A stretch of 64,000 bases of DNA. Source: an uncultured Planctomycetota bacterium. Its GTDB lineage: Bacteria > Planctomycetota > Planctomycetia > Isosphaerales > Isosphaeraceae. The translations under genes were made by a program, and so were the position numbers. The notes beneath the pieces were generated by a model, which was not told where the DNA came from, did no database searches, and saw only the letters and a program-made list of their open reading frames with translations. Where the stretch lies: assembly GCA_963823665.1 (NCBI GenBank), contig CAWGMQ010000010.1:2613473-2677472 (forward strand). Direction: 5' to 3'. Positions 13,685 to 64,000 of this stretch are shown here, piece after piece (position 1 is the first letter of the stretch; the number at the start of each line of letters is the position of its first letter).

Positions 13685-13740
13685 CCAGCTTTGTCGAGAT
13701 TTCGGCCCGCGAGACGCGGCTCGAACAGCCCGCATTCCGG

Positions 13741-29346: not shown

Positions 29347-30063
29347 TCACGAGCCCGACTTATCGGGCGGAGGGCCGGAGCTGGCGCCGCGAGCGTCTTT
29401 CTTTTGCTCGCTCTTGCTGTTGCTCGGCTTCCGGCCGGGCTTCTTGCACTGGCCGCTCTTGCATCCCTGGCATTGCGTGGGAATGGCGAGCCCTTGAAGC
29501 TCGCCCACATCCAGTCGGGCGAGGCGGATCGCGCTTTCAAGATCCTCACGGTGCCGCCGCGCGGCCACTTGATCGCCGGCAGATTCGGCTTTCTCGGCTA
29601 GCAGGCGATAGGATTGCCGCGCGCTTTCAATATCGGGCTCCCACTCTGGCGTGCCGAGGCCCTCGAGCCGCTTCAGCCATGTGATGTAATACTGGGCGCT
29701 GGCCTGGGCCTCGCGGGCCTCATCGCGGAGCCCGGCACTCGCGGACTTGTCGTCCTGCAACTGTTCGACCAGATCCTGGAGAGCGGCGCTGGCCTCGGGC
29801 AACTGGTGGGCGAACATCTGGGCCTTGGCGCGCTTGAGCCGGATGCGGCGAACGTCTTCAACCCGCCCTTCCGGCAACATCGCCTGGGCTGCGTCATACT
29901 TCGCGACCGCGGACTGCCAATCTTGCGCGGCAGCAAGGCGATCGGCGTCGGCGAGCACGGTCGCCGCGTCATCCAGCCGCAAACGCTCCTGGCCCGGGCC
30001 ATAATGGTATGCCCCGAAAGCGACCGGAACCAGCAGCCAACCGAGAAGCACGAGCGTTCGCAT
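29347..30063 (-). CDS. Membrane-anchored helical/TPR-like protein (BatC-like position)
   Basis: N-terminal TM, helical body, CQGCKSGQC and charged tail; operon context. Confidence 0.7.
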   Translation of the reverse strand: MRTLVLLGWLLVPVAFGAYHYGPGQERLRLDDAATVLADADRLAAAQDWQSAVAKYDAAQAMLPEGRVEDVRRIRLKRAKAQMFAHQLPEASAALQDLVEQLQDDKSASAGLRDEAREAQASAQYYITWLKRLEGLGTPEWEPDIESARQSYRLLAEKAESAGDQVAARRHREDLESAIRLARLDVGELQGLAIPTQCQGCKSGQCKKPGRKPSNSKSEQKKDARGASSGPPPDKSGS

Positions 30064-30239
30064 CGGTCCACCTCTCGAATCGTCAAACCGCAAGCAACAT
30101 CGTCGGTCCACCCGACGTTTGTCACGGAACCGTGGTGTAGCTTACCCGATCCGGCCGTGCGGTGGAAACGGGATCATTTATTTTCTGGAAGTTTTTGCTC
30201 GCCCGGCCGGTGCGTCGCCGGATCACGCTGGAGTCTGCC

Positions 30240-31271: not shown

Positions 31272-32180
31272 GGGGTGTACCTCAGGCCAAAGAGCGCGCA
31301 CCCCGAAAGACCCAGGAGCGACAGACCCGCGATGCACACCGGCACAAAGTTGTCCAGGAGCTCCGACGCCGTCTTCTCGAGCTTCGTCTCGCGCATGGCG
31401 TCGATTCGCTGAAATACAACTGTGAGAGCACCGGGATCATCCACCGCAAAGACCTCGCCGCCGGTGAGCGCGGTGACGTTCACGATCGTCGGCGGCGCGG
31501 GCCGGTCCGAAATGTGGATCGCGTAGACGGCGATGTTGCTGCGCTTCAGCGTCTGGGCGATTGACTCGTCGTTGCCGCCGGCCAGGTCGAAGCTCTCACC
31601 ATCGGATACCAGAATGATCATCCGGTCGCCCTCCTCGCGACTGGTCAAGATCTCTTTGCAGGCCAGGAGGGCCTTGCCGATCATTGTCCCCCCCATCCAG
31701 TAGGGTACGTTTTCCGGCTTCATGAACGGAGGCGCGCAGCGGATCGCCGAGGGATCACTCGTGAGCGGCACCCAGTGCAGCACGTTGTTGCCGAAAAACG
31801 TCAGCCCGAACGCGTCTCCTTTGCGAATGTCAAGGAAGCTGTCGATGGCCTTCATCGAGCCGTCATAGCGCGTGCCGTCGCCCAAGGGCGACATCATGCT
31901 GCTCGAGACGTCGACACAGAATTCGATATTCGTGAGCACACGCTTCGTTCGCGGGGCGCTCAACTTCTGCGGTCCGGCCAGGAGCACGATGACCACGGCC
32001 AGGATCAGGGCCGGCATCGATCTCGGCGATGCCCAGCGTCACCGCCCAGCCTCGGCCGCGGGATTGGCCGCCGTGATCCAGCGGCAGCGCGATCCGCCCA
32101 CTCTCGCGCCGCCAGACCCACGCAATCAAAAGCACCGGCGCGGCCAGGAACGCGAGCACGGAGGGATAGGCGAAGCTCAT
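31265..32180 (-). CDS. VWA-domain membrane protein (BatA-like; frameshift ~32020)
   Basis: MSFAYP..L BatA-type N-terminus; DVSSSM, GGTMIGKAL, VSDGE. Confidence 0.88.
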
Positions 32181-33074
32181 CGTGTGTGCTCCTTGATCGC
32201 ACTCGATCCTGCTTCCGGCCGGGCCGAAGCGGGCGCCGCCTCTTCGAGCTCGTCGGCCGCGATCGCTTGATACGGCTTCAAAAGGGCCGTGACGTCGACC
32301 GGCCCGGCGGTTCCGGCCGGCCGATGCAGCCAGTCTTCGAGCCGGCGCAAGAGCGGGCCTGCCTCGTCGTGATTTCGCAGCAGCGTGATGAGCTTCGCCG
32401 GCGGCGCGTCTTCCAGCTTGAGCCGGCGGCGCCAGTAGCCGATCAAGAGTCGCTCGAGCTCCGCTTGCTCGCCGGCGCCGAGCTCACCGGCGACAGCCTC
32501 GTCGACCAGCGGTTTGAGACGGTCGGCCAGCGTCAAGGCGCGGCCTGCGGCCTCGCCCGAAGCGACGCGTTTCCCTCGGCGGACAAGCAGAATCGCCGCC
32601 AGCCCCAAAAGCCACGCCACGCCGCCGATCAGCATGTAGAGGCGATACCCTCCCAGCCACGGCGATTCAGAAAGCGAAAGTGGATGCGGCTCGAGCTGAC
32701 CTGGCGGGAGGAGCGGTTCGATCAGCACGGGAATCGGCGGCAAGCCGGCTGTCGATGAGCCGTCTTTGCGCCGCAAGCAAGTCTTTGAGGTCATACGTAC
32801 CCGGATCAAGGCCGTAATAGACGAAGTCGTAGCGAAACGCCGTACCGTGAGGATAGACACCCAGGATCCGGAGCACGATCGGTGCCCGGCGGTCATCAAT
32901 CGGACGCACCTCCAGCTCACTTCCCGGCAGCACACGCTGCTCGATCCGCGCGGGCATGCCGACCGTCGACTTTGACGCTGGCGGCGCATCGTCGGCATGC
33001 GCGGCCGGCGCGGCAAGGAGCGCGATCAGCAGCAGTCGCATCGACCATCCGTGCCTTGAGACGGTTTGCTTCAT
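32177..33074 (-). CDS. Hypothetical membrane protein of the MoxR operon (frameshift ~32770)
   Basis: Signal peptide, TM segment; tight spacing with both neighbours. Confidence 0.7.
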
Positions 33075-33076
33075 TG

Positions 33077-33958
33077 TTAGCGAGCTCCTTTGCCAATCAA
33101 GCCGCGAAGCTTGAAAAACTGGCGGAGCTGTGAGACGAACGGCTGATCGGTCGGGATCAGCAGATAGTCGACGCCGGCCCGCTTGAGCTCGCGCTGGGCC
33201 AATGCCGGGTCGGTGCCGCGAAGCTGGCCGCGAATGACGAACTGACGTCCGGTTTCCGCCTCGCGGGCCCGGACAAACCCCACACCGCGCAGCCGGTCTT
33301 CGGCGGGATCGCGCAGTTGCAGCACGACGCAGTCATGCTCCTGCGAGATCCGCTTGAGCGCAAGAACGGCAGTGGGATCGTGCAGATCGGAAAGCACGAT
33401 GACCAGCACCCGTTGGGGGAGGCTCGGCGTCAGCTCAAACAAGCGCGAGCCGAGCGATGTGGACTCGTCGTAGCGATACGTGCGGAGCGTGTGCAGCCAC
33501 TGGAGGATCTGGTCTTTTGAGAGGCTCGGCCGCACGTGCAAATTCTGGCCGCCCACTCCCAGCATACCAACCGGGCTGATCCGATCCAGGCACGCCAGGG
33601 CCAGGCCGCCGGCGATGAAGACCGCTGTCTCGTACTTGCTGGGGTGGTGCGAGCTGATGGTCATCGAGGCCGACGTGTCGACCAGCAGGTAGACCGGCAT
33701 TCGCTTGGGCGCTTCATATTCCTTGACGTGGACCTTGCGGGTGCGAGCGGTCACGCGCCAGTCGATGAGCTTGATCGGATCGCCATACTGGTACGGCCGC
33801 GACTGCACGTATTCGACCCCGGCTCCCAGAAACGGCGAATGGTCCGTGCCGTAGCTCAGTCCGTCAGCAAGCCTCTTGACGGCCAGATAGAACTGCCGGG
33901 AGTCGAGGACGTCGTGATGTTCGATTCGGCCTTGCACGGCAGATCCCAGTTGCAACAT
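33077..33958 (-). CDS. DUF58-family protein
   Basis: G.EY...RPYQYGD..K.IDWRVTAR, VDTSASM, VLSD. Confidence 0.92.
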   Translation of the reverse strand: MLQLGSAVQGRIEHHDVLDSRQFYLAVKRLADGLSYGTDHSPFLGAGVEYVQSRPYQYGDPIKLIDWRVTARTRKVHVKEYEAPKRMPVYLLVDTSASMTISSHHPSKYETAVFIAGGLALACLDRISPVGMLGVGGQNLHVRPSLSKDQILQWLHTLRTYRYDESTSLGSRLFELTPSLPQRVLVIVLSDLHDPTAVLALKRISQEHDCVVLQLRDPAEDRLRGVGFVRAREAETGRQFVIRGQLRGTDPALAQRELKRAGVDYLLIPTDQPFVSQLRQFFKLRGLIGKGAR

Positions 33959-33987
33959 GAAAGATCAGAATGATTCGTCGACCGCCC

Positions 33988-35119
33988 TTACCCTGTTTCT
34001 CCCACAGAGCGGATGCGCTCAGCGGGCTCGGCCATTCGTGAGCAGGCCGGCTGTCGAGAGCGACTGGGCGCACGACCCGGGCCCGCGCCGAATGGCCCCA
34101 GTATCTCGCGCAGGAGCGAGGCGCCCGTGAGTCCGTCAGCAAGCGCTTCATACGTCAAGCGGATGCGATGAAGGATGACGTCTTCAGCCAGGGCAAACAG
34201 GTCTTCCGGAATGACGTAATTGCGGCCATGGATCGAGCGCTCGAGCGCGCGAGCCTTTGATCAGCGCGATGCCGGCCCGCGGGCTCGCCCCCAGCTCGAT
34301 GCGCGGGTGGTTCCGCGTGCGACCAACGATTTCAACGACATGGTCGGTGAAGGTCTCGCTCACATAGACGTTGTGGACTGCCTCCATGGCGCGAACAAGC
34401 TCTTCAGTCGTGGCGATCGGCCCCCCTTCGAGCACGTCGAATTCGGTGCGGGCAACTGCTCCGCGGTCTTCGCGGCGAATGCCGAGCGAAGCGTTCCGCC
34501 GCAAGATTTCCTTCTCCTCGGCTGGCTCGGGATAGACCAGGCGGTGGCAGAGCATGAACCGGTCAAGCTGCGCCTCGGGCAGCTCGAATGTGCCGCTCTG
34601 TTCGATCGGATTCTGGGTGGCAATCACCACGAATGGCGCGGGCAGCTTGAACGTCTCGTTGCCGATCGTCACCCTGCGCTCTTGCATGGCTTCGAGCAAC
34701 GCGCTCTGGACCTTCGGGGCCGCGCGGTTGATCTCGTCTGCCAGCAACAGGTTCGTGAAGATCGGCCCCTTGTGCACCCGGAAGTCATTGCTGCGCTGAT
34801 CCAGGATCTCCGACCCGATGATGTCTGAAGGGAGCAGGTCAACCGTGAACTGGATTCGCGCGAAATGAAGGTCGATCGTCTTCGAGAGAACCGCGACCAG
34901 CAGCGTCTTGGCCAGGCCGGGCACGCCTTGAAGCAGCAGGTGGCCGCCCGTGAAAAGTGCGACCAGCAGCCGCTCGACCACCACGTCCTGGCCGACGACC
35001 ACTGTCCCGACGCGCTCGCGCACCGAGCGGATGAATTCGAGCGTCTCTGCGGGAATCAAGCCCGAGCCGTGATCGATGCCCTCGCGGTGTTCAGCGGATT
35101 CTGTGGTCTTGTGATCCAC
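33988..35119 (-). CDS. moxR: MoxR-family AAA+ ATPase (frameshift ~34240)
   Basis: GVPGLAKT, RIQFT.DLLPSD, LADEINRA.PK.QSALLEAM, ATQNP.E, LPEAQLDRF, GASPR. Confidence 0.95.
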
Positions 35120-35196
35120 GAGGACTTCCCTTCGGCGGGTTATTCGACCGTGACCGAATCGATCAAAGTGCGGCTTCGAGCCGTTTCTATCCCATA

Positions 35197-37636
35197 CTAT
35201 TGGGGCGGTTGCAAGTTCATGCAAGTGTTTTCTCTGCATTCTCTCGGAGTGCGCTGCATCTGCGAAGACGGCCTATTTCTGAGCTTGCGCGGTGTTAGAG
35301 TCGCGCGCGAAGACATGCCTTCGACTTCCCACACGACGATTCGTCCGTCTCCCAGACCGGCTGCGAGCAGAGAGCGCGACCGCAGAGTGAAGGCGGCAAG
35401 TGATTGCACAGAACCGGAAGAAGTGAATTGACACAACTTGCGACTGCGGCCGGTCTCGATTGTCCGGACTTCCCAGAGACAGACCCGACCGTCATCGCCG
35501 CCGCTGGCCAAACCCACGCCTTCACCACACCACTCCAGGGCCGGTACGAAGCCGCCGTGTTCGAGCGTCAGCCGGGGCTCGCAGGTTTCCAGGTCCCACA
35601 GCCGCACCTGGCCGTCGTCGCCGCTGCTGGCCAGGCGAGCACCCTCGCCGCACCACGCCAGAGTCCTGACCCAGGCACCATGGTTGAAAGTCACCTGCGG
35701 CAAACGACTCTCGAGGTCCCACAAGCAGACGCGGCCGTCTTCCGCCCCGCTGGCCAGACCTCATCCTTCGCACGACGCAAGAGCAATGCCCCGGGAGCCA
35801 AGCTTTCCGAGCTCCCAGCAGGAACCGGATCGCGGGCTGCAGATGCGAATTGAACGCGATTCGTCGGCGAAAGCGATGTCTCCGTTATTCAAATCGGTCA
35901 TCGCGGTCACGGCGGAATGCGTCTTGAAAAGCGCGAGCCGGGCGCCTGGCCTTCCTGCGACAAGCCGCAACCAGGCGCGCGACGTGGCCGCCAGACCGTC
36001 GCTCAATCTTAGCGCGAAAGCCCGCGCGGGATCGCTTTGGCTCTGGTACAGACAAGCGTAGGCTTGCGCCGGCAGCTCCTCGGGTGAGCTACTGTAGAAC
36101 GAGCCGCGGTCTACCATCATGCGATGGAGCGCCGTCGCAACCGCTGAGCGGCCGCTGTCGCCGCGCGAGCGACTCGAGCAGCCTGCTCCACTCCACCGGC
36201 GCGTCGTCCACCAGGAGGAACGCCATCAGCAAGGATTCGATCTGTTCCGGCGTGAGCAATCCTCCGAGGAATTCGAGAGCGCAAAACCATCCCGAGGGAT
36301 CCGCACGGACGCTCGCAACGACCTCGTGCGCCCATCGCGGGTCGAGGTCTTCCGCCATGCGCACCGCCTCCAGGCCGAGATGCGCATGAAGGTCTCGCGC
36401 CTGGAAGTAATCGAGAAACGAGTCATGCACCAAGGCCATCCGCGCCGGGCCGGACCGCATTTCCCCCGTCTGGTGCGGCGACATGCCGTGCCGGCGTTCT
36501 TGCCCGGCGAGCAGCTCTTCGGTCACAACCCCGTAGAGGTCGGCCAGAGACTCCACCTGGCTCATCCGCCCGGCGTCGAGCACTGCGAACAGGTGCATGA
36601 CCAGCGGCGTCGAGATCAGCCCGCCTTTTCCTCGACCGTGGCGCGAGAGGAAACGCTCGAGCTTGGCGCACTCGGCATCGACGTCGCGGTCGGTCCGGCT
36701 GCGACCCAGCTCGCTATCGACCTGCTGCTCGAACCGCCGGTAACGACGAAGGTAGCCGACGGCCCGGCCGGGCTCGATCGTCGCCAGGTCGTAGGCTCGG
36801 AAGACCGGCTCCGCGAGGGCGCCCAGGATGTCGTCCCCGTCCTGGCTCGAGCGGTACGCGGCAACGCAACGGACTCGATCGGCGTTTGTAGCTTGAAAGA
36901 GACGGAGCGACCTGGCCACGGCGTAGCGCACCGCCTCGGAGGAAATCTCGTTGAGGTCGATGAAGATCACGAGTCGGAGTCCGTCGGCCAGTTCACGCGA
37001 AATCAGCCCACTATTACCCGCGTCGAGCCCTGCCGCCTGTGCGAGCAGCTCGTGGACGATGAGCGGGCCCGCGACTTGATCGGCATCCTCCAGGGCGAGC
37101 TCCGGGGCGGTCCTCTCTTCGTCTTCCAGCTCGGCGAGCGCCTGTATGCAGGAAGCGCTCGTCCGCAGCCGAACAGGGAGCCACTTTGGCTCCGCCGAAC
37201 GGACCGAGGGACCACCGCAGATAGAAAGCGCGCTCGCCACATCACGAAAAGCCCGAATCGCGGCCAGCGTCTTGCCCGCGCCCGCTGGCGCGGCGAGCGC
37301 GATCCCCGCCGGTTGGCCCGCCGGCACCGGGGCTTGCAACGCCAAGGTCAACGAGCTCCAGCCCCGAGCGCCTTTCACCTTTTGGACCGGCTCGAGGGAT
37401 AGGGGCAAGTGGAGCTGGTCGTCGCACTCGCCAATACCGAAGAACTGGTCGAGCAATCTCCGCCGATCCCCGTCGGAAACCACGCAACCGAACCCGGCCA
37501 GTCGATCGAGAATTGCCTGCACAGGCAAGTCTTCGCCCGCACAACCGTGCTCGGCCGCGATGTGGGCGCCAAAAAAGGCCGGGCAATATTCGGCGGTAGG
37601 GGACGGACCTTCCTCGGGATGCGGTTCCTTGCTCAT
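35197..37636 (-). pseudogene. Divergent NACHT/STAND-like NTPase with WD40 repeats; broken or degenerate
   Basis: APAGAGKT, LVIFIDLNE, TPLVMHL, HDSFLDYF; LASSGDDGQVRLWD repeats in shifted frames. Confidence 0.62.
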
Positions 37637-48572: not shown

Positions 48573-51543
48573 TCACGGTGCGAACGGCTTTTCCGGCATC
48601 GCCACGTCCATCATCAGGAGCTGGAAGTCCTGGCGCGATCGCAGGGGGTCGAGGTCGGAATCGTTGCGCATGACTGCGAGGTCACGGAATCCCCGAGCGA
48701 CGGCCTTTCGCAGGAAGATCATGGCCCGATCAGCCTCGGCGGCGCCCTCCGCGGCGGTGAGCCCCGAGCGGGGCAGGGCCGCTATTCCGGCCAGCCGGGC
48801 GTGCGCACAGGCCGCGTTGTAGTAATCGAAAAGTGTGGGTGATGAAATCATCGCCCACATCGCGAGAGCCTTACGGTATGCGTCGGCCGCCTCGGCCGCC
48901 TGGCCGTCGGCTTGACGGAACGAACCGACCCTGAGCACCGACTCGGCGAGCATGCGCTGGAACTCGGTCACGCTCGGGTTGGCGTCAGCCAGCCTCCGCA
49001 AAATCTCCCGCACTCGCTCGTACGCCGCCAGCGCTTCGGCACGCTTGCCCATTCGGGTCAGCAGATCGCCGACGTAGGTCTGGTTCATCGCAAGGACACG
49101 CTGGAACTCGGTAATCGAAGGGTTCGCGTCAACCAGCGTCTGAGTGATCGCCCGCGCGCGGTCATAGTCTTCCAGCGCTTCGGCCCGCTTGCCAAGTCTC
49201 TCGTGCGCGATGCCGACATTGTTGAAGATAAAAGCCAGGTTACTCTGGAACTCGGTGACTCCCGGATTGGTGACGGCCAGCTTCTGAGCAATTACCCGAG
49301 CTTTCTCATACCACGTGAGCGCCTCGGCCAGCTTGTCCTGGCTTGCCAGCGCGACGCCGATCTGATTGAGAGTGGCCGTCAGGTCGCTCTGAAACTCGGT
49401 GACGGAAGGATTGGCGTCGGCGAGCGTTTGGCGGATCGACAGAGACTCTTCGAGCGACGCAAGCGCCTCGTCGTGCTTGCCCATGTTTTCTCCAAGCAAA
49501 CGGCCGATTCGAAGGTGTGCCTTGCCCAGGACGGCTTGGACCTGCCCGGGCGCGAGGTCGGTCTTACCGAGCCGCTCGGCCAGCCCCCGAGCCTCCTGGA
49601 ACGCCACCATCGCACCGGCCAGGTCTCCTGTGTCTCGCTGCAAGGAGCCCGCGGCAAGCAGGCTGCGCGCCAGGTCGAGAGTCGCCCCCGCATCCGCTGA
49701 CCGCCGCGACTGCAAGCTCCCGCCGCACCGCGATCGCCTTCTGGTAAACGGCCAGCGCGTCCTGCTTGTTCCCGATGTTTCCGCTCAAGCCCGCCAGCTC
49801 GTCGTAGGCGGTGGCCAGGGCCGCGCGCGACTTCGGGTCGGTGTGACCCGTGAGCAGGCCCTCCATCTTCCCGTAGAAATCGGCCGCGCCGCGCAGCAGC
49901 TTGGAGCGCAGTCCATCGAACTCTCTCTCTTTCAGGAGCAGATCCTCGCTCACCTCGCCGTGGAACAGTTTGATCGCCGACATCGCCAGGTCGAATCGCT
50001 CCCGCTCGCGCCCGTAGGACGGCAACGAGATCGGCGTTGGACCTTTTGACCTGGGCGTTGGCGATGGCCAGGTCGATGTTGGCCGAAGTCAAGTCGTGAT
50101 TGGCCTGGGTCTGCACGGCGAGCACCGACGCGGTACCCGCCAGCGCGACCAGCACCGCCGCGGCGAGCGCGGCGACCGCGGCCCGGTTGCGGCGGCCCCA
50201 CCGCCGCGCCCGGCGGGAGAGTGGCTCGCGCCAGGCCGTCACGCGCTCGTCGGCCATCCAGCGATCCACGTCGCCGGCCATTGCCGGGGGGTGGCGTAGC
50301 GATCGGCGGGATTCCTGGCCATCGCCTTCAGGCACACCGCTTCGAGGGCACGGTCTAACGTGGGGTCAAGAGCCCGCGGCGGCCGCAAGTCGCCGGTTTG
50401 CACGGCCCGCAGCACGTCCACCACATCGCCTGCCTGCGGCGGCTTTCCGGTCAACAGGGAGTAGAGAACCGCCCCCAGGCTGTACACGTCCGACCGCGGG
50501 CCGATTCGGTCAAAGTCGCCGAGCGCCTGCTCGGGGCTCATGTACGCCGGCGTGCCGAGTGCCGAGCCCGGCAGCGTTTCCGAGCTGCCGCGCGGCGAGC
50601 CCGGCAGGAGCGTCCGCTCGCCGGACGATGGGTCCGACCTGCCGGTCGCCTTGGCCAGCCCCCAGTCGACGACCAAAGTCTCACCGTGCTTACCCAGGAT
50701 CACGTTGGCCGGCTTGATGTCGCGATGCAGCACACCTCGGCTGTGGGCGTACTCGATGGCGTTACAGACGTCAGTGAATGCGTGAAGCAGCTTGCGCAGC
50801 TCGAGCGACCGCCGGCCTGGATCCTCGTTGAGCGTCACGTCACCGTGAAAGTGCGCGATTGCTTCCTTGAGCGATTCTCCGCGAATGAACCGCATCGCGT
50901 AATAGGGCCGGCCGTCTGCATACGTTCCCAGGCCGTAGACCGGCACGATGCCGGGGTGCTCGAGCCCGCCAGTGATCTCGGCCTCGAGCACAAAGCGGTC
51001 CCGGCTGTCAGGGTCGTCGGCATGCGCGTCGAGGATCTGCTTGAGGGCGACCTCGCGATTCAATTCAGCATCAAGCGCGACGAAGACCGCGCCCAGGCCG
51101 CCCTTGGCATGTGGCCGCAACACACGAAACCGCCCGCCGGCCGAGGTGGCCGCGCCAACGGAACTGGCGATTGTTGTGTCTTCTTCCACGCTCGCGCTCT
51201 CGGAGCCGTCCACCCCGACGCGGGCGAGCGAGGCCTCGATCTGAGGTCCGCCGATCCGCGCTAGGCTCTCGCAAGTCGCACGGCCGGCCGGAACGGCGGC
51301 GAGGCTCCTCTCGACGTCCGCGCCGTGTTTCTTCAAGTGCAGGCCTACCATCGCGTCAATCACGGCGCGCTGATCGGCGTCAAGTTCACCGCGCGCGACC
51401 AGGTGAGCGGCGAGGTCCCGCGCCTTGTCGAGGTTCCAGGCCTGAAACGCGGCCACGAGCTGACCCTGGTTGATCAGGCCGACCTGAAGCGCGAGCAATC
51501 CGAAGAGTAGATTCCGCTCGGGAGACGTGGAGGCAGCGCCCAT
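48573..51543 (-). CDS. Ser/Thr protein kinase with TPR repeats (frameshifts ~50290, ~50020, ~49700)
   Basis: [11 protein letters not shown]-terminus, [29 protein letters not shown] repeats; YNAAC..D.DLDPLR end. Confidence 0.9.
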
Positions 51544-51759
51544 CAGTCGAGGCTCCGGTGTCGGTCCGGCGGAGTTTGCATGATCTCATGCGCATCGGGC
51601 CCGCCGGCTCTTCGAGGCTACGTTGCCAATATGAGGAGTGCAATGGCGAGCCCGAGCATGCCGGCGGCCACCGCACGTCCAGTTCGGGCCGCCCGAATGC
51701 TTTCTCCTCGTTCACGCTATGAGGCAGTACGCGTCCAACCTCGGATCATTGGCAACGGG

Positions 51760-51788
51760 TTGACAATAATTGTCAAGTCTGGCATGAT
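51760..51788 (+). promoter_or_regulatory. Sigma-70-type promoter overlapped by a palindromic operator
   Basis: TTGACA-17 nt-CATGAT with TGn; TTGACAAT-A-ATTGTCAA inverted repeat at 51760-51776. Confidence 0.72.
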
Positions 51789-51810
51789 CGTCCGAAAGGA
51801 CGTAGCCAAA

Positions 51811-52073
51811 ATGGAAACTATGAATATCGCATTGCCCGAATCGATGAAGCACTTTGTGCAGGAACGGGTGATCGAAGGCGGATACAGTAGCGTCAGTGAA
51901 TATGTCCGTGAGCTGATCCGAGCGGACCAGAAACGCAAGGTCAGCGAGCGCATCGACACTCTGCTGCTCGAAGGGTTGGATTCCGGGCGCCGATCTCCGT
52001 GACGCCCGAGTACTGGGACGAGAAGAAACGCCGCCTGACCGAACGGTTGAGCAAAGTGACGCCGCCGCAATGA
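51811..52073 (+). CDS. parD: ParD-like ribbon-helix-helix antitoxin (frameshift ~51990)
   Basis: MNIALPE.MK.FV..RV..GGYSS.SEYVRELIR..LLEGLDSG; shifted tail stops with ATGA overlap on the toxin. Confidence 0.88.
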
Positions 52074-52399
52074 CCGCGCACTACCGCGTCCTCCCCGCCG
52101 CCGACCGGGACCTGGACGACCAGGCCTCTTATCTGGCGGCAGTAGGCAGCCTGGAATTAGCCCTCCGATTTTATGACGCGGCCAGCGCCACCTTCGCCAC
52201 GATCGCGGGCATGCCCGCGGTAGGCGAACGGTGGCGGTCAGATAACCCTCGCCTGGCCGAACTGCGTGTCTGGCCAGTCGCGGGTTTCGAGAAGCACCTG
52301 ATCTTCTACCGACCTGTCGTCGAAGGTATCGAAATCGTCCGGGTGGTGCACGGGCCACGCGACATCGATGGTGTGCTCGAATCTGGTCACACCGAGTGA
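52070..52399 (+). CDS. parE: ParE/RelE-family toxin
   Basis: A.RDL, P..G, LR..PV..F.KHLIFYR, IEIVRVVHG.RD. Confidence 0.9.
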   Translation: MTAHYRVLPAADRDLDDQASYLAAVGSLELALRFYDAASATFATIAGMPAVGERWRSDNPRLAELRVWPVAGFEKHLIFYRPVVEGIEIVRVVHGPRDIDGVLESGHTE

Positions 52400-52589
52400 C
52401 AGCCTGAAGCAATCCGAATTCTGACTGCAACCGGCTCGTGCTCGCTATCGCTGTGCGTTATCCTTGATCCACCGAAACCAGAAATCGCGATCTTCGAGAC
52501 TCGCTGAGCCTGAGTGCGTAGCTCATCTTTCCGGTGGATTCGCCCGACGCGACGTTGGCGATGACTTCGCCGCCCTGGAGGGCGTGAGC

Positions 52590-54608
52590 ATGCCTGAGAG
52601 ACCCGCGCAACGCGTTGATCGCGCTCTATTGATCGGCGTGGATCGATACCAGTACATTCGCCCCAACCTGGGAGGTTGCGTCGGCGACGTCAACCGGCTG
52701 CGCGATTTGCTGGTCGGGCAGCTCGCCACGTCGCCCCGCCGGATCATCCAGCTCACCTCGAGCATGCGGCTGAAAGAGAAAGCACCCAAACGACCCACGC
52801 GCAAGAATATCATTAACAGCCTCAAGAGGCTGGCCGCCGTCGCGAAACCAGGGGAGCAGATATACATTCATTATTCCGGTCACGGGATGCGCAACGCCAC
52901 AACGATCTTGCCAGGCATCGAAGCCGACGGGCGCGACGAGGCGATCGCACCCATGGACAGCGGCTCGAGCGATCCGGCGAGCTATTACATCCTTGACAAG
53001 GAGCTGGGCTGGCTGCTCGGGCAGATCACGAACACCGGCGCGTTCGTGACGGTTGTGCTCGATTGCTGCCACTCGGCGTCCGGGACGCGTGAGATCGGAG
53101 GGCCAGGGTCGGGCCGAGAGCCGAAGGTGCGCCGCGGCTGGGAGGGGGAGGACCGGAGACCGCGGACCGACGCGAACCTGGTTGCGCCGATTGCCGAGCT
53201 CAAGATGGTCGCAACCTCCGCACCTGGAGCGACGGGCAGCCTGTTGCCAGCTCCGAAGGATTACATCTTGATGACGGCCTGCCGCGAGCGAGAGACGGCC
53301 AAGGAGTATGAATCCAACGGCGTTTTCACTTTTTTCATGCTCGAGCATCTCAAGAACGGCCTGGCCGGCTTGACATTCCGCGACCTCCAGGACCGGATCG
53401 CCGGCAGTATCCGGAGCCTGGCATCGGGTCACCGCGACTACGACGAACAGACGCCGCAACTGGAGGGAAACGGCAACCTCGTCGTTTTCGGCGGCGGCGT
53501 CGTGGCCGAACCGACGGCGCTTCCGGCAGTCTTGCAGGCCGACGGCACCATTTTACTCCCGGGTGCAGGCGCAGCGGTGGGCGTGGTCGTGGGCACAACT
53601 GTGGGCCTCTACTCGCCGGGGACGATCGATTTCGCCGACCCAGGCTGTCAGATCGGAGTCGCGACCGTGAAGCGCGTTCGCGCCGACGCTGCCGTGTGCG
53701 ATGGCGCCGGCGATGTGCCTGCGGAGAAGCTCGTGCCAGGCATGCGAGCGATCGTGATACGTCCGGGCGTCGCGAAGATCCGGCGGCGCGTCGCGGTGAT
53801 CGGTGGCACCGTGCTGGACGAGCTGCGTCGGTTGATCGCGCCGCCGGGCGCGGCCGGGCTGCCTTCGGCAGTACTCGAGCTGGTCGAAGAGGACGAACGG
53901 CCCGAGCTGTCGGTCGTCATCTCGGACGGGATCTACTCAATCCGCGACAACCTCGACCAGCCCCTGCCGCGCATCAGCCCGCCTGTCAGGGCCGGCCAGC
54001 CGCGGGCCGCCGCCAGGGTGCTCAAGCGGCTCGAACACATTGTTCACTACCGCAACGCGTGGGACCTTTATAATGGCGACGAATCCTCGAAACTACGCAA
54101 TGCGCTGGCGATCTCGATCAAGCGGGGCGTCACGCGCTCCGGCGGACGGGTCGGGCTGGAGCCGGGCGACCAGATCACGATCTGTGTGCACAACCGGTCC
54201 GCGGCCCCCTTGAGCGCGGCGCTTCTGTACTTCGCTCCGGACTGGAGCGTCGTCCGCGTCTGGCCGGACGGCGATACCGCGTATACCGAATTGGGGCCCA
54301 CCGGCGATGTCGGCTTCGAGGTCCAGGTGATGGAGGCCAGTCTGCCAGCGGGGGTGGCATCGAGCATCGACCGGCTCAAACTGTTCGCGACACAGAAAAA
54401 CCGGCCAACCAGCTTCGATATCCTGCACCTGGAAAAGCTCGATCAGGCACGGGCCACGAAGCGTGCGGGGCTGGCCGGCCCGCAGAATGAACTGGAGGCG
54501 ATCCTGGACTCCATGGTTGCGGGAGCGGTCTCGCGCGAGTTGGTCTCCGTCAAGCGCACGGGCGACTGGGGCACCGCTCGCCTCGAGCTAGAAACTTTGC
54601 CTGGCTGA
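52590..54608 (+). CDS. Caspase-like peptidase (C14) with long C-terminal region ending in a DUF4384-like beta domain
   Basis: ALLIGVD.Y, L.GCV.D, HYSGHG, LDCCHS dyad, GVFT, QTPQLEG; GGAGG upstream. Confidence 0.9.
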   Translation: MPERPAQRVDRALLIGVDRYQYIRPNLGGCVGDVNRLRDLLVGQLATSPRRIIQLTSSMRLKEKAPKRPTRKNIINSLKRLAAVAKPGEQIYIHYSGHGMRNATTILPGIEADGRDEAIAPMDSGSSDPASYYILDKELGWLLGQITNTGAFVTVVLDCCHSASGTREIGGPGSGREPKVRRGWEGEDRRPRTDANLVAPIAELKMVATSAPGATGSLLPAPKDYILMTACRERETAKEYESNGVFTFFMLEHLKNGLAGLTFRDLQDRIAGSIRSLASGHRDYDEQTPQLEGNGNLVVFGGGVVAEPTALPAVLQADGTILLPGAGAAVGVVVGTTVGLYSPGTIDFADPGCQIGVATVKRVRADAAVCDGAGDVPAEKLVPGMRAIVIRPGVAKIRRRVAVIGGTVLDELRRLIAPPGAAGLPSAVLELVEEDERPELSVVISDGIYSIRDNLDQPLPRISPPVRAGQPRAAARVLKRLEHIVHYRNAWDLYNGDESSKLRNALAISIKRGVTRSGGRVGLEPGDQITICVHNRSAAPLSAALLYFAPDWSVVRVWPDGDTAYTELGPTGDVGFEVQVMEASLPAGVASSIDRLKLFATQKNRPTSFDILHLEKLDQARATKRAGLAGPQNELEAILDSMVAGAVSRELVSVKRTGDWGTARLELETLPG

Positions 54609-54730
54609 CGTTCGTGTGAAAGAATGGTCCGAGACGACCGCCACCGCGAACAGGTGGGGAAGCGAACGGCGGCGCGCACGAGTCGAGAATCCCCGACGGC
54701 AGGTGCCGATGATTCCGGCGAAAGGGATCG

Positions 54731-56552
54731 ATGATGGAGATGCATAAGGTCGATTTCAGCGGGGCTTGCGCTCTGGTCATCGGGATCGCCTCCTACCAAC
54801 ACGTCCGGCCCCTTCCCAAGGTCGATGATGCCAAGGCGATCTCCGAAGTGCTCCTGGACAACGAGCTCTGTGGGTACGGGAAGGTCACAACGCTGGAGGA
54901 AGAGAAGGCCACCAAGCAGGCAATCCTCCACGAGCTGGACGAGCTGGCGAATGAACCGACAAAGACCGCCGTGCTGATCTACTTCTCGGGCCACGGGGGG
55001 CGGATCGACGAGGGGGAATACCAGGGGCAATACCTGCTGCCCGTCGAAGCGATCTACAGTTCCGACGCGGAGCTCGCCAGGACGGCCATCGACGGCAAGC
55101 TACTGACAGAGAAGCTCGGGGGCATCGCCAAGCGCACGAGGCAATTGACGGTCATTCTCGACTGCTGCCATGCGGGCGTGCTCGTCGAGGACGAGGCCGT
55201 TGCGAAAGACCTCACCGTGGTGGGTATGCACCCGGGCCTATCGCCGGGCTTTCTGGAGAAAGAAATCCTGGGCAAGGCCCAGGTGATCCTCGCCGCTGCC
55301 ATCGACAAGGCTTACGTCTATCAAGATGACCAGTACGGCGCGTTCACAAAGCACCTATTGAATGGCTTGCGTGGCGAAGCCGGAGGGTCGGGCGGGATCA
55401 TACGGGTGACGGAGCTCTACAACTACATCCAGGAGCGCCTTGCGAGCGAGAAAGCCAAACAGCGCCCCTTTTTCAAGGCCGCGTTTGAAATCGACTACCC
55501 GATCGTGCGCCACCTGGGCAGCAAGGCCGGATCGGGCATCACGATCACGACTGGCCTCGAAGTGCTCAGCAGGTTGATCGGCGAGAGTGCCCTGGTTCGG
55601 CAGATGGTCAGCAATATCAAGAACAATCTGGAAGCAGAGCGCGAGCAGATCAACAGCGTGGCGCTCCTGAAGTCACTGCACGACCGGCTCCATGAGCTGC
55701 AGGCGCACGACTTCCGCGAGATCCAGCGTGAACAGGAGCTTCTTCCCGCCATCGCGCGAGCCTGGCCGAATCTGACCAATCTGGCGGATTGGGTCAAGAG
55801 TCGCGCCGAGGTGTTGCGTTCCATTGCGACCATGGTCTATCCGGAAGAGGAGGCGATGGAGTGGGTCGACGAGCTCGTCGAGCGCGGCCGAGCAACTCCA
55901 TCAGGGCGCTCTGCATCGCGACGAGAACGAGGTCGAAGACGGGGTATTGGGGCTCAGTCGCGTGCTGAGCACGCGTCCAGCGCAGGTCAACACGGACCTT
56001 CTGAAGGCGATTCGCGGGATGAAGCTGCGCGTGCTATTTGGCGAGCTGATGAGGATTGGCGAGGAGATGGCGCGGGCGGAGGTCGCCGAGAACGACGTGC
56101 GTACCTTTACCACGGGCGGACGGGACCTGGGCCGATTCGATCGCGAGATCACCGACTTGATGGAACAGCACGATCGCTGGCAGGAGATCGACGTGGAAGC
56201 GAGCCGGATCGATAATAACTGGAAGGGGCATCCGCGAGAGCTGAACGCCTCCTGGCCGAGACTGTCAACGATGGTCCGGGAGCAGCTCGAATTCGTGACA
56301 GCGCCCCACGACAAGGACCTGGATGCGGCTATCGAGGCGGTGGCCGGTGTGCTCGACGAAACCGGACCGGGTTCGACGGAGAACAAGTATGACGCGTTTC
56401 GGAAGTTGCGAAAGCACGCCGTCGACTGGTTCCATACGCTGGACACAATTCTGCTCGGTCGGTGTAACGAGCTGAAGGCGATTGACGCCGCATTGAGCCT
56501 GACAATTGCCGCCGTCGGGAAAGCCACTTCCCAAGGGAATTCCGGACCATGA
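54731..56552 (+). CDS. Caspase-like peptidase (C14) fused to an uncharacterised alpha-helical domain of about 330 aa (frameshift ~55885)
   Basis: ALVIGI..Y, YFSGHG, LDCCHAG, GAFT..LL.GL.G, QRP; helical part continues in ORF 55824-56552. Confidence 0.88.
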
Positions 56553-59500
56553 GCACCAGCGACCAAACAACGGCCGTCGCGAGCGATTTCGAGGGGGCAG
56601 CCCAGGCGGCCCTCCGGGAGGCCGAGGAGAAAGGCCGATTCGAGTCGCTCGAGGCGCTGCGGGATGTTCACTCGTTTCTCCTGGCGAAGCGCGGCGCGGC
56701 CAAAGATGACGAGGGTCGCGCCCCGCCCGATATCCTCGATGTCCGGGAGCGATTCCTCACTTTGGGGGCTGCAACCGGCGTCATCGTCGACGCGAAGCAA
56801 GACCGCTGGGAGACCCAGAGCCTGCTGGATTACTGGTATACCGTACAGTACCGCGATGGCAAGCGGCCTGCGAAACCGCGACTGGCCCCGCTTGACGAGA
56901 GCCTGCTCCTGGACCTGGACAACTCGGCCTGCCCCTACCGGGGTCTGGATGCCTTCCGTGAGAAGGACAGCCCGTACTTCTTCGGCCGCGACGGGCTACG
57001 AAAAGACCTGCTCGACATGCTCGCAGAAGCCCCCATTCTGGCAGTGGTCGGGCCTTCCGGCAGCGGCAAGTCATCGGTCGTGCGAGCAGGGCTGATACCG
57101 GACCTGCGCACCGGTGGGCTTCCGGGAAGCGAGTCGTGGACCATCTTGCCGCTCATGGTGCCCGGTTCCGACCCGCTCGATAGCCTGGCGCGGCTCGTCG
57201 TCGACCACCAGACCGACCCAATGGCGACGCCGGCGCCCGCCCCGCCCTCTCTCGAGCCGGCGGCGACGCTGGCCAAGGAAGCGCGCCAGGATAAGCATTG
57301 CCTCGCCAAGCGGCTCGACAAGCCCTCTGGCCCGCCCGTTGTCGTGGCAATCGATCAGTTCGAGGAGGTGTTCACCCTCTGCAAGAACGCCAAGGACGCC
57401 CAGGCGCTGATCGATAACCTGCTCGAGCTGGTCCGGACAAAGCCCGACGCCGCGGTGAAAAACCGGGTGATCTTGACGATGCGCAGCGACTTCCAGGTGC
57501 ACCTCCAGAAGTATCCGGAGCTACTCGAGTTGTTTCGCGCCGGACGTGTGCCGGTCATGCCCATGGCAAAGGACCAGTTGCGCAAAGCAATCGAGGGGCC
57601 GGCGCAGCAAGCCGGTTTGGTTTTCGAGAAGGGGGTTGTCGAGGCGCTGGTCGAAGACACCTTCGCCGAGCCGGGGGCGTTACCCCTCTTGCAATTCGCG
57701 CTCCTCAAGCTGTGGGAAGGCCGCTGGCACAATAAGGTCACGATGGAGGCGTACCGCCGCCTGGGGGGCAGCCGGGAGGCACTGGCGACCGCTGCCGATG
57801 AGCTCTTCACGCACATGAACCGTGAGAACCAGGACGCGGCCAAGCGCATTTTTCTGCGCATCGTCCGGCCGGGCGAGGGGCTGGAGGTCACCAACAAGCG
57901 CATCCCGCTGGGAGACTTGCACCCGCCCGGCGAGGACCATGCGCGAACCGATGAGGTTCTCGACAAGCTGGTCAAGGCGAGGCTGGTCCGGCTCACGCCG
58001 GGCCTGAGGAACGAGGACACCCAGGTTGAGGTCGCGCATGAGGCGCTGGTGCGCAACTGGCCGCGGCTGGTCAACTGGCTGGAAAAGCAGCGGGGGGCGA
58101 TCGTCGCGCGGCAGCGATTGGAGCTGAAGGTGGCCGAATGGGTCGGCCGGGGCCGCGGCGACGACGCGCTCCTGGATGAGGCCCAGTTGCCCGATGCGAG
58201 ATCATGGCTGGACAGCACGGATGCGGCGGAACTCGGAGTCATCCCTTACCTGCGGGACCTCGTCGACGCGAGCGCACAGGCCATCAAGAAAAAGCAAAGG
58301 CTCTGGTACGGAGCGATTTTCGCGCTGGGCATCCTGACCGTCTCCTCGGTCATCGCCGCGGGCATCGCGGTCCGCCAGAGCGACAACGCGCGGAAGGAGA
58401 GCGAAAAAGCCAAGGAGGCGTTCCGGCAGGCTGACGCAAACTACGTCAAGTTTGTCTCCAGCAAGCTTCTCCAGGCCGCCAAAGAGGACAGCGGCAATTC
58501 CGATCGCAGTCTTCTCCTGGCACAGAAAGCCGTCGCCGCGCTCCAATCGCGAAATCTCCCGATACCGGCTGAGTTCTCACAGACCCTGAAGGCGCTGGTC
58601 AGGCAACCCGCCGTGAAATTCGATATTTCACATGTTGAGAAGGTTCTTGTCTACTATGATCGTAGTGGCCAACTACTAGCAACAAGTACCTACGGGAGCA
58701 ACGCGGCTCTCTGGGACGCGAACACAGGAAAGAAGCTCTCGGAGCTGGCCGGCACGGCGGACAAGGCTCTGATGGCGCTGGCATTCAGTCCGGACGGCGA
58801 GCACCTGGCCACCGCCGACCTCGAGGGAAGAGCCAAGATCTGGAGATTCTCGACCGCGGGCCAAGACCCGAAGCCCGCCGCCACCCTGGGTGGCGGCCAC
58901 AAAGGAGCTATCTTTGCGGTCGCGTTCGCACCTGCTGCTGCGGCGCAGAATCGTCTGGCCACGGCCGGCGACGACGGCATGGTGGTCGTCTGGGACGGCA
59001 ATACCGGCAGACAGATTTCCAGACTTTCCGGCCACAACGGCAAAGTCTTCACAGTGGCCTATTCGGCTGACGGCCGCCAGCTCGCTAGTGGCGGCCTTGA
59101 CGGGACGGCCATTCTCTGGGACACGTCTCTGAGCAAACCGACCCGGGTGCTGCAACATCCTCATGGAGTCGTCACGGCCGTCGCATTTGACCCGGGCGGT
59201 ACCCGGATCGCAACGGTTTGCACGGACGGTCATGTGCATTTGTGGGACACGCGTACAGGTGATTCTCTCAAAACACTGCAGTCGGGCAAGGTCGCCTGGT
59301 ACGGAGGTCTCGCGTTTTCACCGGACGGCCAGATCCTGGCCACTTCGGGCATCGACAAGAACGTCGTGGTGAAGCTCTGGAGAATTCCGAGCGGGGAACG
59401 AGAACTCTCCATCACCGTGGGTGACAACTACGCGCACGCGCTGGCCTTCCGGCCTGACTTGAAACGATTTGCAATTGCAAGCCCGGCTGCATCGGCCGGC

Positions 59501-60527
59501 TCGGTAACCGGCCAGCGCCAGGATCAGCCGGCGCTGGGCTCGACCCAGACCGTGAAGATTTTTGAGATCCGGAAGATCGAGAATCTGCTAGAGTCAATCC
59601 GGAAACCGGAACAATACGACCTCACGGTGGACGACTACCTCGAGATCCTGAAGGATCTGTCGCCCGACCATTTCGATCACATGGTCGAGGCCAGAAACCT
59701 GGCGAAGAACGACGATGTGGACGGCGCTCTGGCCAAGATCAACGAGGCGCTCAAGCTGCCCGGCCTCGATCTGAATATCGACCGGGAATCAAAACGACTT
59801 GTCGCGGAGTTTCTGCTCGAACGCGGCTGTATGCTGGCACGCGAGGGCAAACCGGACGAGGCGCTCAAGATGTTTGGGAGGGCCCAAGAGACTCCACAAT
59901 AAGCCATCTTTCGACCCGCAATCGGAGGCTCGCCGGTGCGAGGCTTTTGGCCTGTTCGAGGAGGGAGAGCGGCGAGCAGCCCAGGGCGACTACGAGCGAG
60001 GAGCACAGGCATTTCGCAGGGCCAAAGAACTCAACGATCGGTACAACTTCGACCCCGACTCACTTGCAAAGAAGCTCGCTGCGCCGGCCGTGGTCAACCG
60101 GGGATTGGGTCTGGTTCGGGAGGGAAAGGTCTCTGAGGCGCTCGAGGCGTTCCAGGAGGCACCAAAACTCGATTCGATGCTGGAAATCCCGGTGTCGAGC
60201 TGGAACAATCTCTGCTGGTGGGGCAGCCTGCACGGAAAGGCGGCAGACGTGCTTTTTGCCGGTGAGCGGGCGGTCAAGCTCGCCCCGGCCGAGACGGTAG
60301 GCTCCGTTCGCGACACGCGAGGCCTGGCCAGAGCGCTCACAGGTCAGACTGCAGGGGCCATCGAAGACTTCCAGGCCTACCTCGAATGGGCGAAGGCCAA
60401 CCCCGGACGAGCCGATCAGCAGGAAATCTCCGACCGCCTCAAATGGATCGCGGAGCTGAAAGCCAATCGTAATCCATTCGACAAGCGCGAACTGGATCGA
60501 ATGCTCAAGAACGAACTCGAAAAGTGA
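56549..60527 (+). CDS. STAND NTPase (nSTAND1-like) with unknown N-terminal domain, TM segment, WD40 propeller and TPRs (frameshift ~59890)
   Basis: CPYRGLDAF..D...FFGR, GPSGSGKSS, IDQFEEVFT, LPLLQFAL, EVAHEAL.R.WPRL; WD40 repeats; WNNLCW.G and RDTRGLARAL TPRs. Confidence 0.9.
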
Positions 60528-61686: not shown

Positions 61687-61741
61687 AACCCGAAGCGTCA
61701 GCGAGGAACTGAACAGCGAGTCCTCGCTGACGCTTCGGGTT
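61687..61741. repeat. Perfect 21-bp inverted repeat (REP-like hairpin)
   Basis: AACCCGAAGCGTCAGCGAGGA-13 nt-TCCTCGCTGACGCTTCGGGTT. Confidence 0.9.
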
Positions 61742-61831
61742 GGTGTGCTCTCGGCCACACGCCATCGCGAACCACTCCAGCCGAATTGCACGATTGATCG
61801 TTATGTGGCCCCCTCCGCTTTCTCAGACGCC

Positions 61832-62815
61832 CATGGAATTCGAAGTCAAATCTCGCATTGATGGGAAGCGGATTGACGCGTATCTGGCCAGCCGGTTCAC
61901 CGATTATTCGCGCCAGGTACTGCAAAAGGTGATCGATGCCGAAGGTGTACGGGTCAACGGCCGCACTGTGAAGGCGTCATACCGAGTCCGGTCCGGCGAC
62001 CGGATCTCGATCCATCTTCCGGAACTGCCGGAAGTGAGCCCGCAGCCCGAAGACCTGCCGATCGAGGTCGTCTACGAAGATGAGCATCTTGCCGTCGTGA
62101 ATAAGCCGGCCGGGATGGTCACACACCCGCGCGCGGAAACTGGCGAGGCACGCTCGTGAACGCCCTCCAGTTTCATTTCGATCGGCTTTCGACGCTTGCC
62201 GGCGAAAAGCGGCCGGGGATCATCCACCGCCTCGATCGCGACACGACGGGCCTTCTGGTCGTCGCGAAGGACGAGCGCATCCACCATAAGCTCGCTTATC
62301 AGTTCGAGCGCCGCAGCGTCCAGAAAGAGTACCTGGCCCTGGTCTACGGCGTTCCGCAGCGCGACAGTGACTACATCGAGCAGCCGATCGGCTTTCATCC
62401 CGTTTCGCGTGAGAAGATGGCGATCCGGTCTCCCACGGACGGCGGCAAATCGGCCATGACATTTTACCAGGTCGAGGAGCGGTTCCGCGGGTACGCCCTG
62501 GTGCGCTGTCAGCCGAAGACCGGGCGCACCCATCAGATCCGAATTCACTTGACCCACATCGGGCACCCGATCGTTGCCGACAAGCTCTACTCGGGGAGCG
62601 ACCGGCTGACGCTGGAGGGGATCACAATCACGGAAAAGCCACCCATTCGGCTCGCCGAAGTGTCGGAGACCGTGCTGATCGACCGGCAGGCCCTGCATGC
62701 GCACGTGCTCAAGTTTGTGCACCCTGCGACGGGCAAGGAGCTCAGCTTGACAGGTACGCCGCCGGCAGACTTTGCGCGCACCCTTCTTGCGATGCGAGCT
62801 TATTTGCCGGCTTGA
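61832..62815 (+). CDS. rluD: RluA-family pseudouridine synthase, RluD-like (frameshift ~62135)
   Basis: S4 domain, VVNKPAGMVTHP, HRLDRDTTG, TGRTHQIRIH, RQALHA. Confidence 0.9.
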
Positions 62816-62842: not shown

Positions 62843-64000
62843 TCACGGATTGGGATCAACTGACCCGGCGGGTGACAGGCCGTGGGTCGCAATCTCGTGC
62901 GCAAGCTGCTTGGCCAAGGCGCTATGGCGCACACCATACGAAAAGTAAATGCCGAAGCCGACGCCGAGCCAGACCACCAGCCGGGCCCAGTTCTCCCAAG
63001 GGAGCGAAAGCATCAGGATGAGGCACGTCACAATGCCGAGGATAGGGGTGACCGGCATGAACGGAACCTTGAACGGCCGCTCGGCGTCGGGATTCGTTTT
63101 TCGCATGATCAAAACGGCCGCGCAGACCATCAAGAATGCCAGCAGCGTCCCGATATTGACCAGTTCGGCCAGCACGTTCAGCGGGAGAAGAGCGGCGAGC
63201 GTGCCGACGAATACCCCGGTGAGGATCGTCGATTTCCAGGGAGTCTGGAAGCGAGGATGAATCGCCGCGAAGAAACTGGTGGGGACCAGCCCGTCTCGTG
63301 CCATTGCCAGCAACACCCGCGGCTGGCTGAGCATCATCACGAGCAGGACGGACGTGATGCCGGTGATCGCACCGACGGCGATCAGGAACTGGGCCCACGG
63401 GCAGGCCGACCTGTGCGAATGCGTCGGAAACCGGTGCATCGCGGTTGATCTTGTCATAAGGCACCATGCCGGTGAGGATGCTCGCGACGGTGATGTACAG
63501 AATCGTGCAGATGATGAGGGACGCGATGATCCCGATCGGCACGTCGCGCTGCGGGTTCTTCGCCTCTTCGGACTGCGTCGAAACTGCGTCAAAGCCGATG
63601 TACGCAAAAAAGATCGTGGCCGCACCCGCTAGCATTCCGGCAAGCTGGCCGTTGTGCTCCTGGCCCCAGATGGGATATCCCAGGAAGCCGATGCCGCCGT
63701 ATCCGTAGGGTGCGAACGGCTTCCAGTTCGCGGGGTTGACGTAAAATGCCCCGACAACGATGACGAAGAAAACGACCGCCAGCTTGACGATCACCATCAC
63801 GGCGTTGAAGCCCGTGCTTTCCTTGATTCCGATCACGAGAATGGTCGTGATGATGGCCACGATCACGATCGCCGGCAGATCGAAGTAGGCGTCAGTCCAC
63901 AGGAATTTTCCGTTCTTGTAATCGAACGGCGAGTTGGCAAGCGCCGCCGGCCAGAGCGCTTTACCTCCGTTGAAGAATTTCAGCAGGTCCTGAAAGTAAT
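62843..64000 (-). CDS. APC-family amino-acid permease, 3' part (frameshift ~63400)
   Basis: FFAYIGFDAVST..EE.KNPQRD.PIGII.SL, AMARDGL, LAELVNIGTL.AF, RPFKVP. Confidence 0.92.

Follow-up and report, generated by a model that had tools for sequence, protein, structure and literature searches.

Within a 64,000-nucleotide stretch of DNA from an uncultured Planctomycetota bacterium of the family Isosphaeraceae (contig CAWGMQ010000010.1, positions 2,613,473 to 2,677,472; hereafter the window), two helical domains that had no name before, X and Y, appear to fit each other like plug and socket and so to tie a membrane receptor to its protease. The receptor gene (56549-60527) and the caspase gene directly upstream of it (54731-56552, here caspase 2-X) form, with a further caspase gene (52590-54608, caspase 1), a row of three co-oriented genes on the plus strand; we read the receptor and caspase 2-X, with a probability of about 0.58, as a two-gene conflict system of the nSTAND1 type, in which a new heterotypic adaptor pair links a membrane-anchored receptor to its effector. 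Across many bacteria, X and Y appear to connect receptors of this sort to a wide range of enzymes that kill the cell. The initial annotation had proposed an inflammasome-like or apoptosome-like system of two caspases and a STAND receptor with WD40 and TPR repeats; judged from gene neighbourhoods, the conserved unit is X plus Y, not two caspases plus STAND.

The gene coordinates in that annotation were borne out, as were its motifs. Both proteases match Peptidase_C14 above the cut-off (E 9e-19 and 2.3e-20) and keep the His-Cys dyad (SGHG, LDCCH; residues 96/157 in caspase 1 and 86/143 in caspase 2), so that by C14 fold and dyad both belong to the caspase-like C14 peptidases, with predicted activity; caspase 2-X and the receptor gene share an ATGA overlap at 56549-56552, and Walker A (GPSGSGKS at 168) and Walker B (VAIDQFEE at 266) of the receptor are both intact. 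Missed were the identity of the receptor's nucleoside triphosphatase (NTPase), a transmembrane helix and the two domains X and Y; nor are caspase 2 and the STAND gene single open frames, each being broken by a one-base frameshift. Read as one gene, caspase 2-X encodes ~606 aa, with a C14 domain (54770-55480) followed by X (55544-56495), a domain of ~330 aa that forms the C-terminal part of the protein. The receptor, ~1325 aa when read as one gene, begins with Y (56615-56926), ~110 aa long, and has no enzyme domain there; next come an NTPase module (56933-58159) identified as Pfam nSTAND1 (PF20703 positions 1-377 of 379, 389 bits against a cut-off of 27.1, E 4e-116), a single predicted transmembrane helix (58316-58372), and matches to repeats, namely a WD40 beta-propeller (58652-59482) and TPR-like repeats (59650-60527).

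Linkage is what sets X and Y apart. With the receptor's first 584 residues as query and the best 80 of 575 taken, we found, among these 80 nSTAND1 loci, Y (a relative of the receptor's N-terminal 110 residues) in 20, and in 19 of these the directly upstream gene ends in X (L011 has a fragment only); no locus had X without Y, one had Y without X and 60 had neither. Because 18 of those 19 loci served to build the X profile, this set is partly circular, and independent sets were tested. Searching metagenomes with X alone gave 79 loci (the best of 134), seven of which were dropped as too short; Y lies at most 400 bp after X in 71 of the remaining 72, and 2.6 kb on in the last. The full X-Y pairs among them include 54 that are distinct below 90% X identity. 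Searching family relatives with Y alone found X just upstream in 12/12 loci, and the window's own genome (16.5 Mb) has X once and Y once, adjacent to each other. X and Y identities correlate across pairs (r 0.89), which is expected from linkage and was hence not used as evidence.

The pair is patchily distributed, in the manner of an insert. Of 120 other genomes in the window's family, 10 have Y; among 300 genomes sampled from its phylum, none does. Named carriers include Chloroflexota, Cyanobacteria, Acidobacteriota, Nitrospiraceae and one Desulfobacterales genome. Two loci (L092, L103) have two X genes each; in L092 each is followed by its own Y-nSTAND1 gene, giving tandem modules.

At E 0.001 the X profile finds 1,973 representatives, of which 1,687 remain at 1e-10; X architectures were counted in the best 150 of the 1,973, and in 149 of these X is C-terminal, ending no more than 20 residues from the end of the protein. 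AlphaFold predicts an all-helical X of two long four-helix bundles (predicted local distance difference test score, pLDDT, 92), the halves of which align to each other as a repeat with a probability of 79%, and a Y of three helices (pLDDT 84). Pfam holds no family for X or Y, and none of the 18 X and 20 Y members compared matched an EAD; NCBIfam has no family for X, PADLOC none for either, and sequence searches of the PDB returned no relative of X or Y. Fold searches gave generic bundles for X (best Z 13.6, root-mean-square deviation (rmsd) 3.3 over 123 aligned residues, to a designed bundle) and generic helical bundles for Y (best Z 7.5, rmsd 1.7, 64 aligned); Foldseek had no X match at E 0.001, although absence from a fold list excludes nothing, and an ESM Atlas search for X had no usable match, which indicates neither absence nor novelty.

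The X-Y pair of a relative, L003, is predicted to fold as a complex, with a score of 0.85 in three runs against 0.00 for the best of three controls; at least 92% of contacts are shared between runs, and partner pLDDT is at least 78. The mark used for such scores admits 116 of 157 solved complexes as against 2 of 215 mismatched pairs, though for these alignments both figures are only rough; no similar solved complex was found by sequence. In the model, the Y helix bearing the motif QSLLDYW packs against X residues 145-164 and 231-253, and the residues at the centre of the interface, Y Q71/D75/Y76, are 0.88-0.99 conserved and retained in the window's Y. Strong linkage, together with docking modelled for a relative, supports binding of Y to X, making Y the predicted docking site; the suggestion in the initial annotation that the receptor recruits caspase 2 in trans is thus supported, with X and Y as the parts through which caspase and receptor would meet. 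Two other ideas were discarded: that X and Y form a homotypic pair was rejected (hhalign probability 0.2-0.3% for X halves against Y), and X as a pore former is not favoured, the window's X having no hydrophobic segment and X being C-terminal almost throughout.

How the receptor sits in the membrane was predicted from hydropathy and charge. Its hydrophobic helix, residues 590-608, separates the NTPase from the WD40 repeats and has basic residues N-terminal to it; 49 of 50 long Y proteins have such a transmembrane helix, and in 47 of 59 Y proteins net positive charge is greater on its N-terminal side, so that Y and the NTPase are probably cytoplasmic and the WD40 and TPR repeats outside. The helix is no hallmark of Y receptors, a notion we rejected, as 56/56 nSTAND1 proteins lacking Y have one too. 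With a predicted membrane span, direct likeness to Apaf-1 falls away, and the inflammasome comparison in the initial annotation needs correction. We suggest that the receptor would reside in the inner membrane, with its Y domain binding the X domain of caspase 2, the two genes being translationally coupled; that a ligand at the outer repeats would, by analogy with STAND biology, switch the NTPase and cluster Y, such that X-bound caspases meet and activate; and that the protease would then bring about cell death or dormancy as a defence, as the swapped heads of X and a gasdermin locus described below suggest, through a substrate that in this genome would not be a recognisable gasdermin.

X carries many different heads. 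By Pfam, the best 150 of the 1,973 representatives have TIR_2 (34), CHAT (25), EAD7 (11), EAD1 (8) and EAD10 (5), with EAD9 and DUF4062 twice each and EAD8, kinase, BTAD and HEPN once each; 60 have no Pfam label, and a C14 head is found in none of the 150. The L001 head is one that we take to be SIR2-like. Intact caspase-X fusions of 588-618 aa occur in 7 of the 120 homologues listed and also in L137. The closest relatives of the caspase-2 catalytic domain (P0200-P0308) are mostly caspase-TIR fusions of ~415 aa, which suggests that this domain swaps its C-terminal partner too; a sequence search gave no solved relative of it, and no transmembrane helix was found in either caspase-2 open reading frame (ORF).

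When the X head is short, a gene beside it carries that head too in 11 of 18 loci (in one of which the neighbour is a second X copy); for long heads this holds in 1 of 18. The neighbour sharing the head is a caspase in L005, L102 and L013. Heads rich in Gly, Val and Asp are shared in this way in relatives, a feature absent from the window's pair. Since short heads are common to X and a neighbouring caspase, there may be two routes by which a caspase reaches the receptor: direct fusion to X, the arrangement in the window, or recruitment by X acting as a bipartite adaptor. L013 (3392-13247, in a Nitrospiraceae genome) encodes, in turn, a caspase, a bacterial gasdermin (bGSDM; E 1.9e-87), a caspase with a 33-residue motif, an X with the same motif (79% identical between the two) and a receptor of Y, nSTAND1, a transmembrane helix and long outer repeats; judged from its sequence, this locus would have every link from receptor through adaptor and protease to gasdermin.

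Nine family-level loci (L166-L174) retain, after Y, no more of the nSTAND1 module than its C-terminal part; eight of them have a transmembrane helix, and their outer domains vary. This suggests that the X-Y pair outlasts the NTPase. By eye, the outer part of L166 is trypsin-like, and those of L171-L173 have an HEFGH zinc-peptidase motif. Receptors of this kind would also suit a guard or antitoxin logic built on the same X-Y contact, whereby the resting receptor keeps the X effector inactive at the membrane and a signal, or damage to the receptor, frees it: they retain X, Y, the winged-helix part and the transmembrane helix, the ATGA coupling suggests a fixed stoichiometry, and the isolated domains pair in the model with no oligomer. 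Most Y proteins retain intact Walker motifs, however, and TIR and caspase effectors are switched on by proximity, so we judge such a guard unlikely and favour activation by clustering.

The outward-facing sensors, which do not match the cytoplasmic sensing of phage proteins by Avs-type receptors, also bear on whether the module serves immunity at all. Transmembrane signalling for development, stress or cell-cell contact, with the caspase trimming a regulator, would fit a genome with 37 nSTAND1-profile matches and 8 C14 matches, the kinases and extracytoplasmic function (ECF)-type sigma factors among the neighbouring genes of the window, and the single kinase and single BTAD among the X heads. 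Yet TIR, CHAT and EADs dominate those heads, a gasdermin is present in one locus, and the distribution is patchy, as described above; we regard non-immune signalling as a rather improbable explanation, and a defence module remains our preferred reading.

Caspase 1 (52590-54608; 672 aa, C14 domain at residues 11-292 followed by a C-terminal region) is distantly similar to caspase 2 (26% identity over 155 columns) and belongs to a full-length family of its own; its C-terminal region has no Pfam family, a DUF4384-like resemblance being a lead only. The initial annotation had envisaged a two-step cascade, and its strictest form would make caspase 1 an executioner that is always needed and is cleaved by caspase 2, the three genes forming a fixed set. 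Circumstantial hints of this exist: the genes are co-oriented and share an insert; P0156, 72% identical to caspase 1, comes from the same source as the caspase-X protein P0191 and from a contig of equal length (131,149), so that the two may be neighbours; L013 has two caspases; and at L193 (500-16611) several caspase genes are followed by a caspase-1-like gene and, at the end, a caspase-nSTAND1 fusion. Against them, the C-terminal region of caspase 1 occurs in 0/40 X loci for which 3.5 kb or more of upstream sequence is available, any C14 gene being present in four of them (two nearly one locus), and X or Y occurs in 0/15 caspase-1 homologue loci (four widened to 18-20 kb), the closest of which (58-62%, G311) has no nSTAND1 in a 20 kb region. 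The conserved linkage to which the initial annotation had looked for support is found for X and Y but not for caspase 1; an obligatory cascade is very unlikely, and caspase 1 is best treated as an optional partner outside the conserved unit, one that may act as a downstream protease. Elsewhere in the same genome (L196, 8822-17884, contig C4), four tandem C14 caspase genes lie on one strand, with hydrophobic N-termini resembling signal peptides and a kinase and a sigma-like gene adjoining.

Could the module be dead in this organism? Caspase 2 is spread over two ORFs (54731-56215 and 55824-56552) with a frameshift at ~55880, and the receptor gene over two more (56549-59902 and 59799-60527) with a frameshift at ~59875-59890, two breaks in three genes that would be real if the locus were decaying; contigs from four public runs cover the locus in short pieces that bridge neither. 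The X profile nevertheless crosses the first break, its positions 12-123 matching ahead of the frame change and 122-324 beyond it. In P0225, which comes from a short-read assembly, the 101 residues preceding that break and the 223 following it are identical to the window's and stand in a single frame; because this otherwise identical sequence lacks it, the break is likely an assembly error. The second falls in a TPR-like repeat, and the repeat units on its two sides are 41% alike. Further genes of the window are frame-split as well, namely a DUF1800 gene (4691-6086), a kinase-TPR gene (48573-51543), an RluA-type gene (61740-62815) and an amino-acid permease gene (62843-63998), of which the RluA-type gene is unbroken in G329, a genome of the same genus; with several genes split, the indel rate of the assembly is high and apparent split genes call for caution. 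Every catalytic motif of the module is intact. Decay is therefore highly improbable on these comparisons, and both breaks are most likely assembly errors.

The module lies in a variable insert (51654-60526) that also holds a parD-parE toxin-antitoxin pair (51811-52399, plus strand), the parD frame of which seems shortened (profile positions 6-62 of 81). G329 has 1.7 kb of unrelated DNA in place of these 8.9 kb of parDE and three genes, and window positions 7516-13734 and 19128-48091 are also absent at the corresponding place there, which makes the window a mosaic of variable inserts. Positions 29347-35272 carry MoxR AAA, DUF58 and vWA genes and then several unannotated minus-strand ORFs. A scan for promoters and terminators gave results near chance level.

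Parts of the design have precedents; the comparisons that follow draw on portions of the cited sources. Kaur et al. (2021, PMC8195603) named nSTAND1, and the source data to their Figure 2 (source data 1) include loci in which CASPASE+EAD10 is followed by EAD10+nSTAND1+TM+BetaPropeller (TM, transmembrane), as well as all-in-one CASPASE+nSTAND1+TM+BetaPropeller proteins. The EAD-coupled loci have in common with the window the NTPase family, a transmembrane receptor with a beta-propeller, a caspase in the adjacent gene and a small non-enzymatic coupling domain, and X-Y loci, too, have a neighbouring effector gene, bearing a caspase or TIR here and a caspase, TIR or trypsin domain there; but the EAD-coupled genes carry the same EAD on both, a homotypic arrangement, whereas the window pairs two unrelated domains, neither of them an EAD. 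X itself may bear an EAD head, in the manner of a bipartite adaptor. The all-in-one proteins, as at L193, contain the same functional parts, the difference being that the window's caspase would dock in trans instead of being fused. No X-like or Y-like label appears in the small part of the supplementary table of PMC8195603 that was covered.

A Lysobacter gasdermin system with CARD-like coupling (Wein et al., PMC10312443) has an NLR-like STAND, two proteases and swappable effectors, and L013 has the same cast with X and Y. The Lysobacter domains are, however, six-helix and CARD-like, whereas Y is modelled as three helices and X as two four-helix bundles; judged on these models, not on fold lists, neither is a six-helix death-fold adaptor of the apoptosome or CARD type. 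That system also has a bGSDM, in contrast to the window's genome, where none is detectable. Avs and bacterial Apaf-1-like STANDs (10.64898/2026.01.04.697583) likewise combine a STAND NTPase with a C-terminal repeat sensor, but Avs fuse the effector N-terminally and sense in the cytoplasm, while here the effector is on a separate gene and a transmembrane helix is predicted between NTPase and repeats. PADLOC 2.0.0, whose library lacks Avs families named after 2023, gave no Avs match, its only hit being a 37-residue mad8 P-loop match (E 6e-4). The EACC1 two-gene systems described by Kaur et al. (2020, PMC7159879), with the EACC2 systems (2021), are likewise membrane-associated and comprise a constant component and a caspase on two genes, but EACC1 is itself a transmembrane domain, carried by the 5' gene, with the caspase encoded by the 3' gene, whereas the window's 5' gene bears the caspase and no transmembrane domain; the caspase-2 ORFs score 93.4 and 36.8 bits against the EACC1 family NF047832, for which the cut-off is 140. 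Three further sources are context only (10.1101/2023.09.22.558884, 10.64898/2026.10.19.760177 and 10.1101/2020.01.06.895854).

The claim in the initial annotation that no named system matches held in the PADLOC search. The nSTAND1 receptor family and the split caspase-receptor layout had been predicted earlier; heterotypic X-Y coupling, its breadth and the NTPase-less forms appear undescribed. The X-Y pair was not found in a literature that was mostly outside subscription journals and did not extend to the supplements of 10.64898/2026.01.04.697583 or the main source data of PMC7159879.

Among animal adaptors, ASC, FADD and RAIDD bind a receptor by one end and recruit an effector by the other. 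X with a short shared head would be similar in role; having no death fold, it is comparable by analogy only.

Several observations pull against reading the window's pair as a working, clustering-activated defence module. The complex was modelled with the L003 pair and not the window's own, whose X has Ser at interface position Arg234 (Arg in 85% of relatives), and conservation at the modelled interface does not exceed that of the remaining residues in either domain (X, 0.47 versus 0.49, p 0.64; Y, 0.63 versus 0.56, p 0.14). Because L166-L174 have no NTPase core, NTP-driven oligomerisation cannot be universal. The gasdermin link comes from one locus that was noticed, the loci not all having been scanned, and the window's own genome (G000, 92% complete) gave 0 bGSDM matches with PDLC02986 and the L013 protein, bearing out the absence of a gasdermin in the initial annotation; the positive control, G421, matched at 1.6e-86, and a Pfam Gasdermin search of the genome was uninformative, as no control matched. 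The receptor-gene break has no independent in-frame record, the window holds no defence island apart from parDE, and the receptor is not covered by any PADLOC model.

The adaptor pair is, in our view, of more interest than the two caspases. To our knowledge, tested bacterial STAND immune proteins are cytoplasmic with the effector mostly in the same chain, and in the split versions predicted so far the adaptors are homotypic. With X-Y there is a specific interface, already modelled and open to mutation, for in-trans recruitment across ~2,000 sequence clusters named in no library. Two questions become testable with it: what turns on bacterial caspases and TIRs that are encoded by separate genes, and whether bacterial surface receptors trigger programmed death; the soluble domains, 108 aa (Y) and 336 aa (X), are easy to express, and L013 offers gasdermin cleavage as a read-out. 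Tentatively, and with some doubt, we propose that X-Y may be a widespread, death-fold-independent heterotypic code linking outward-sensing single-pass receptors to interchangeable killers (caspase, CHAT, TIR and, via a second motif, gasdermin), even where the NTPase is absent, which would make it a counterpart of death-receptor or Toll-like signalling and not of the cytosolic apoptosome.

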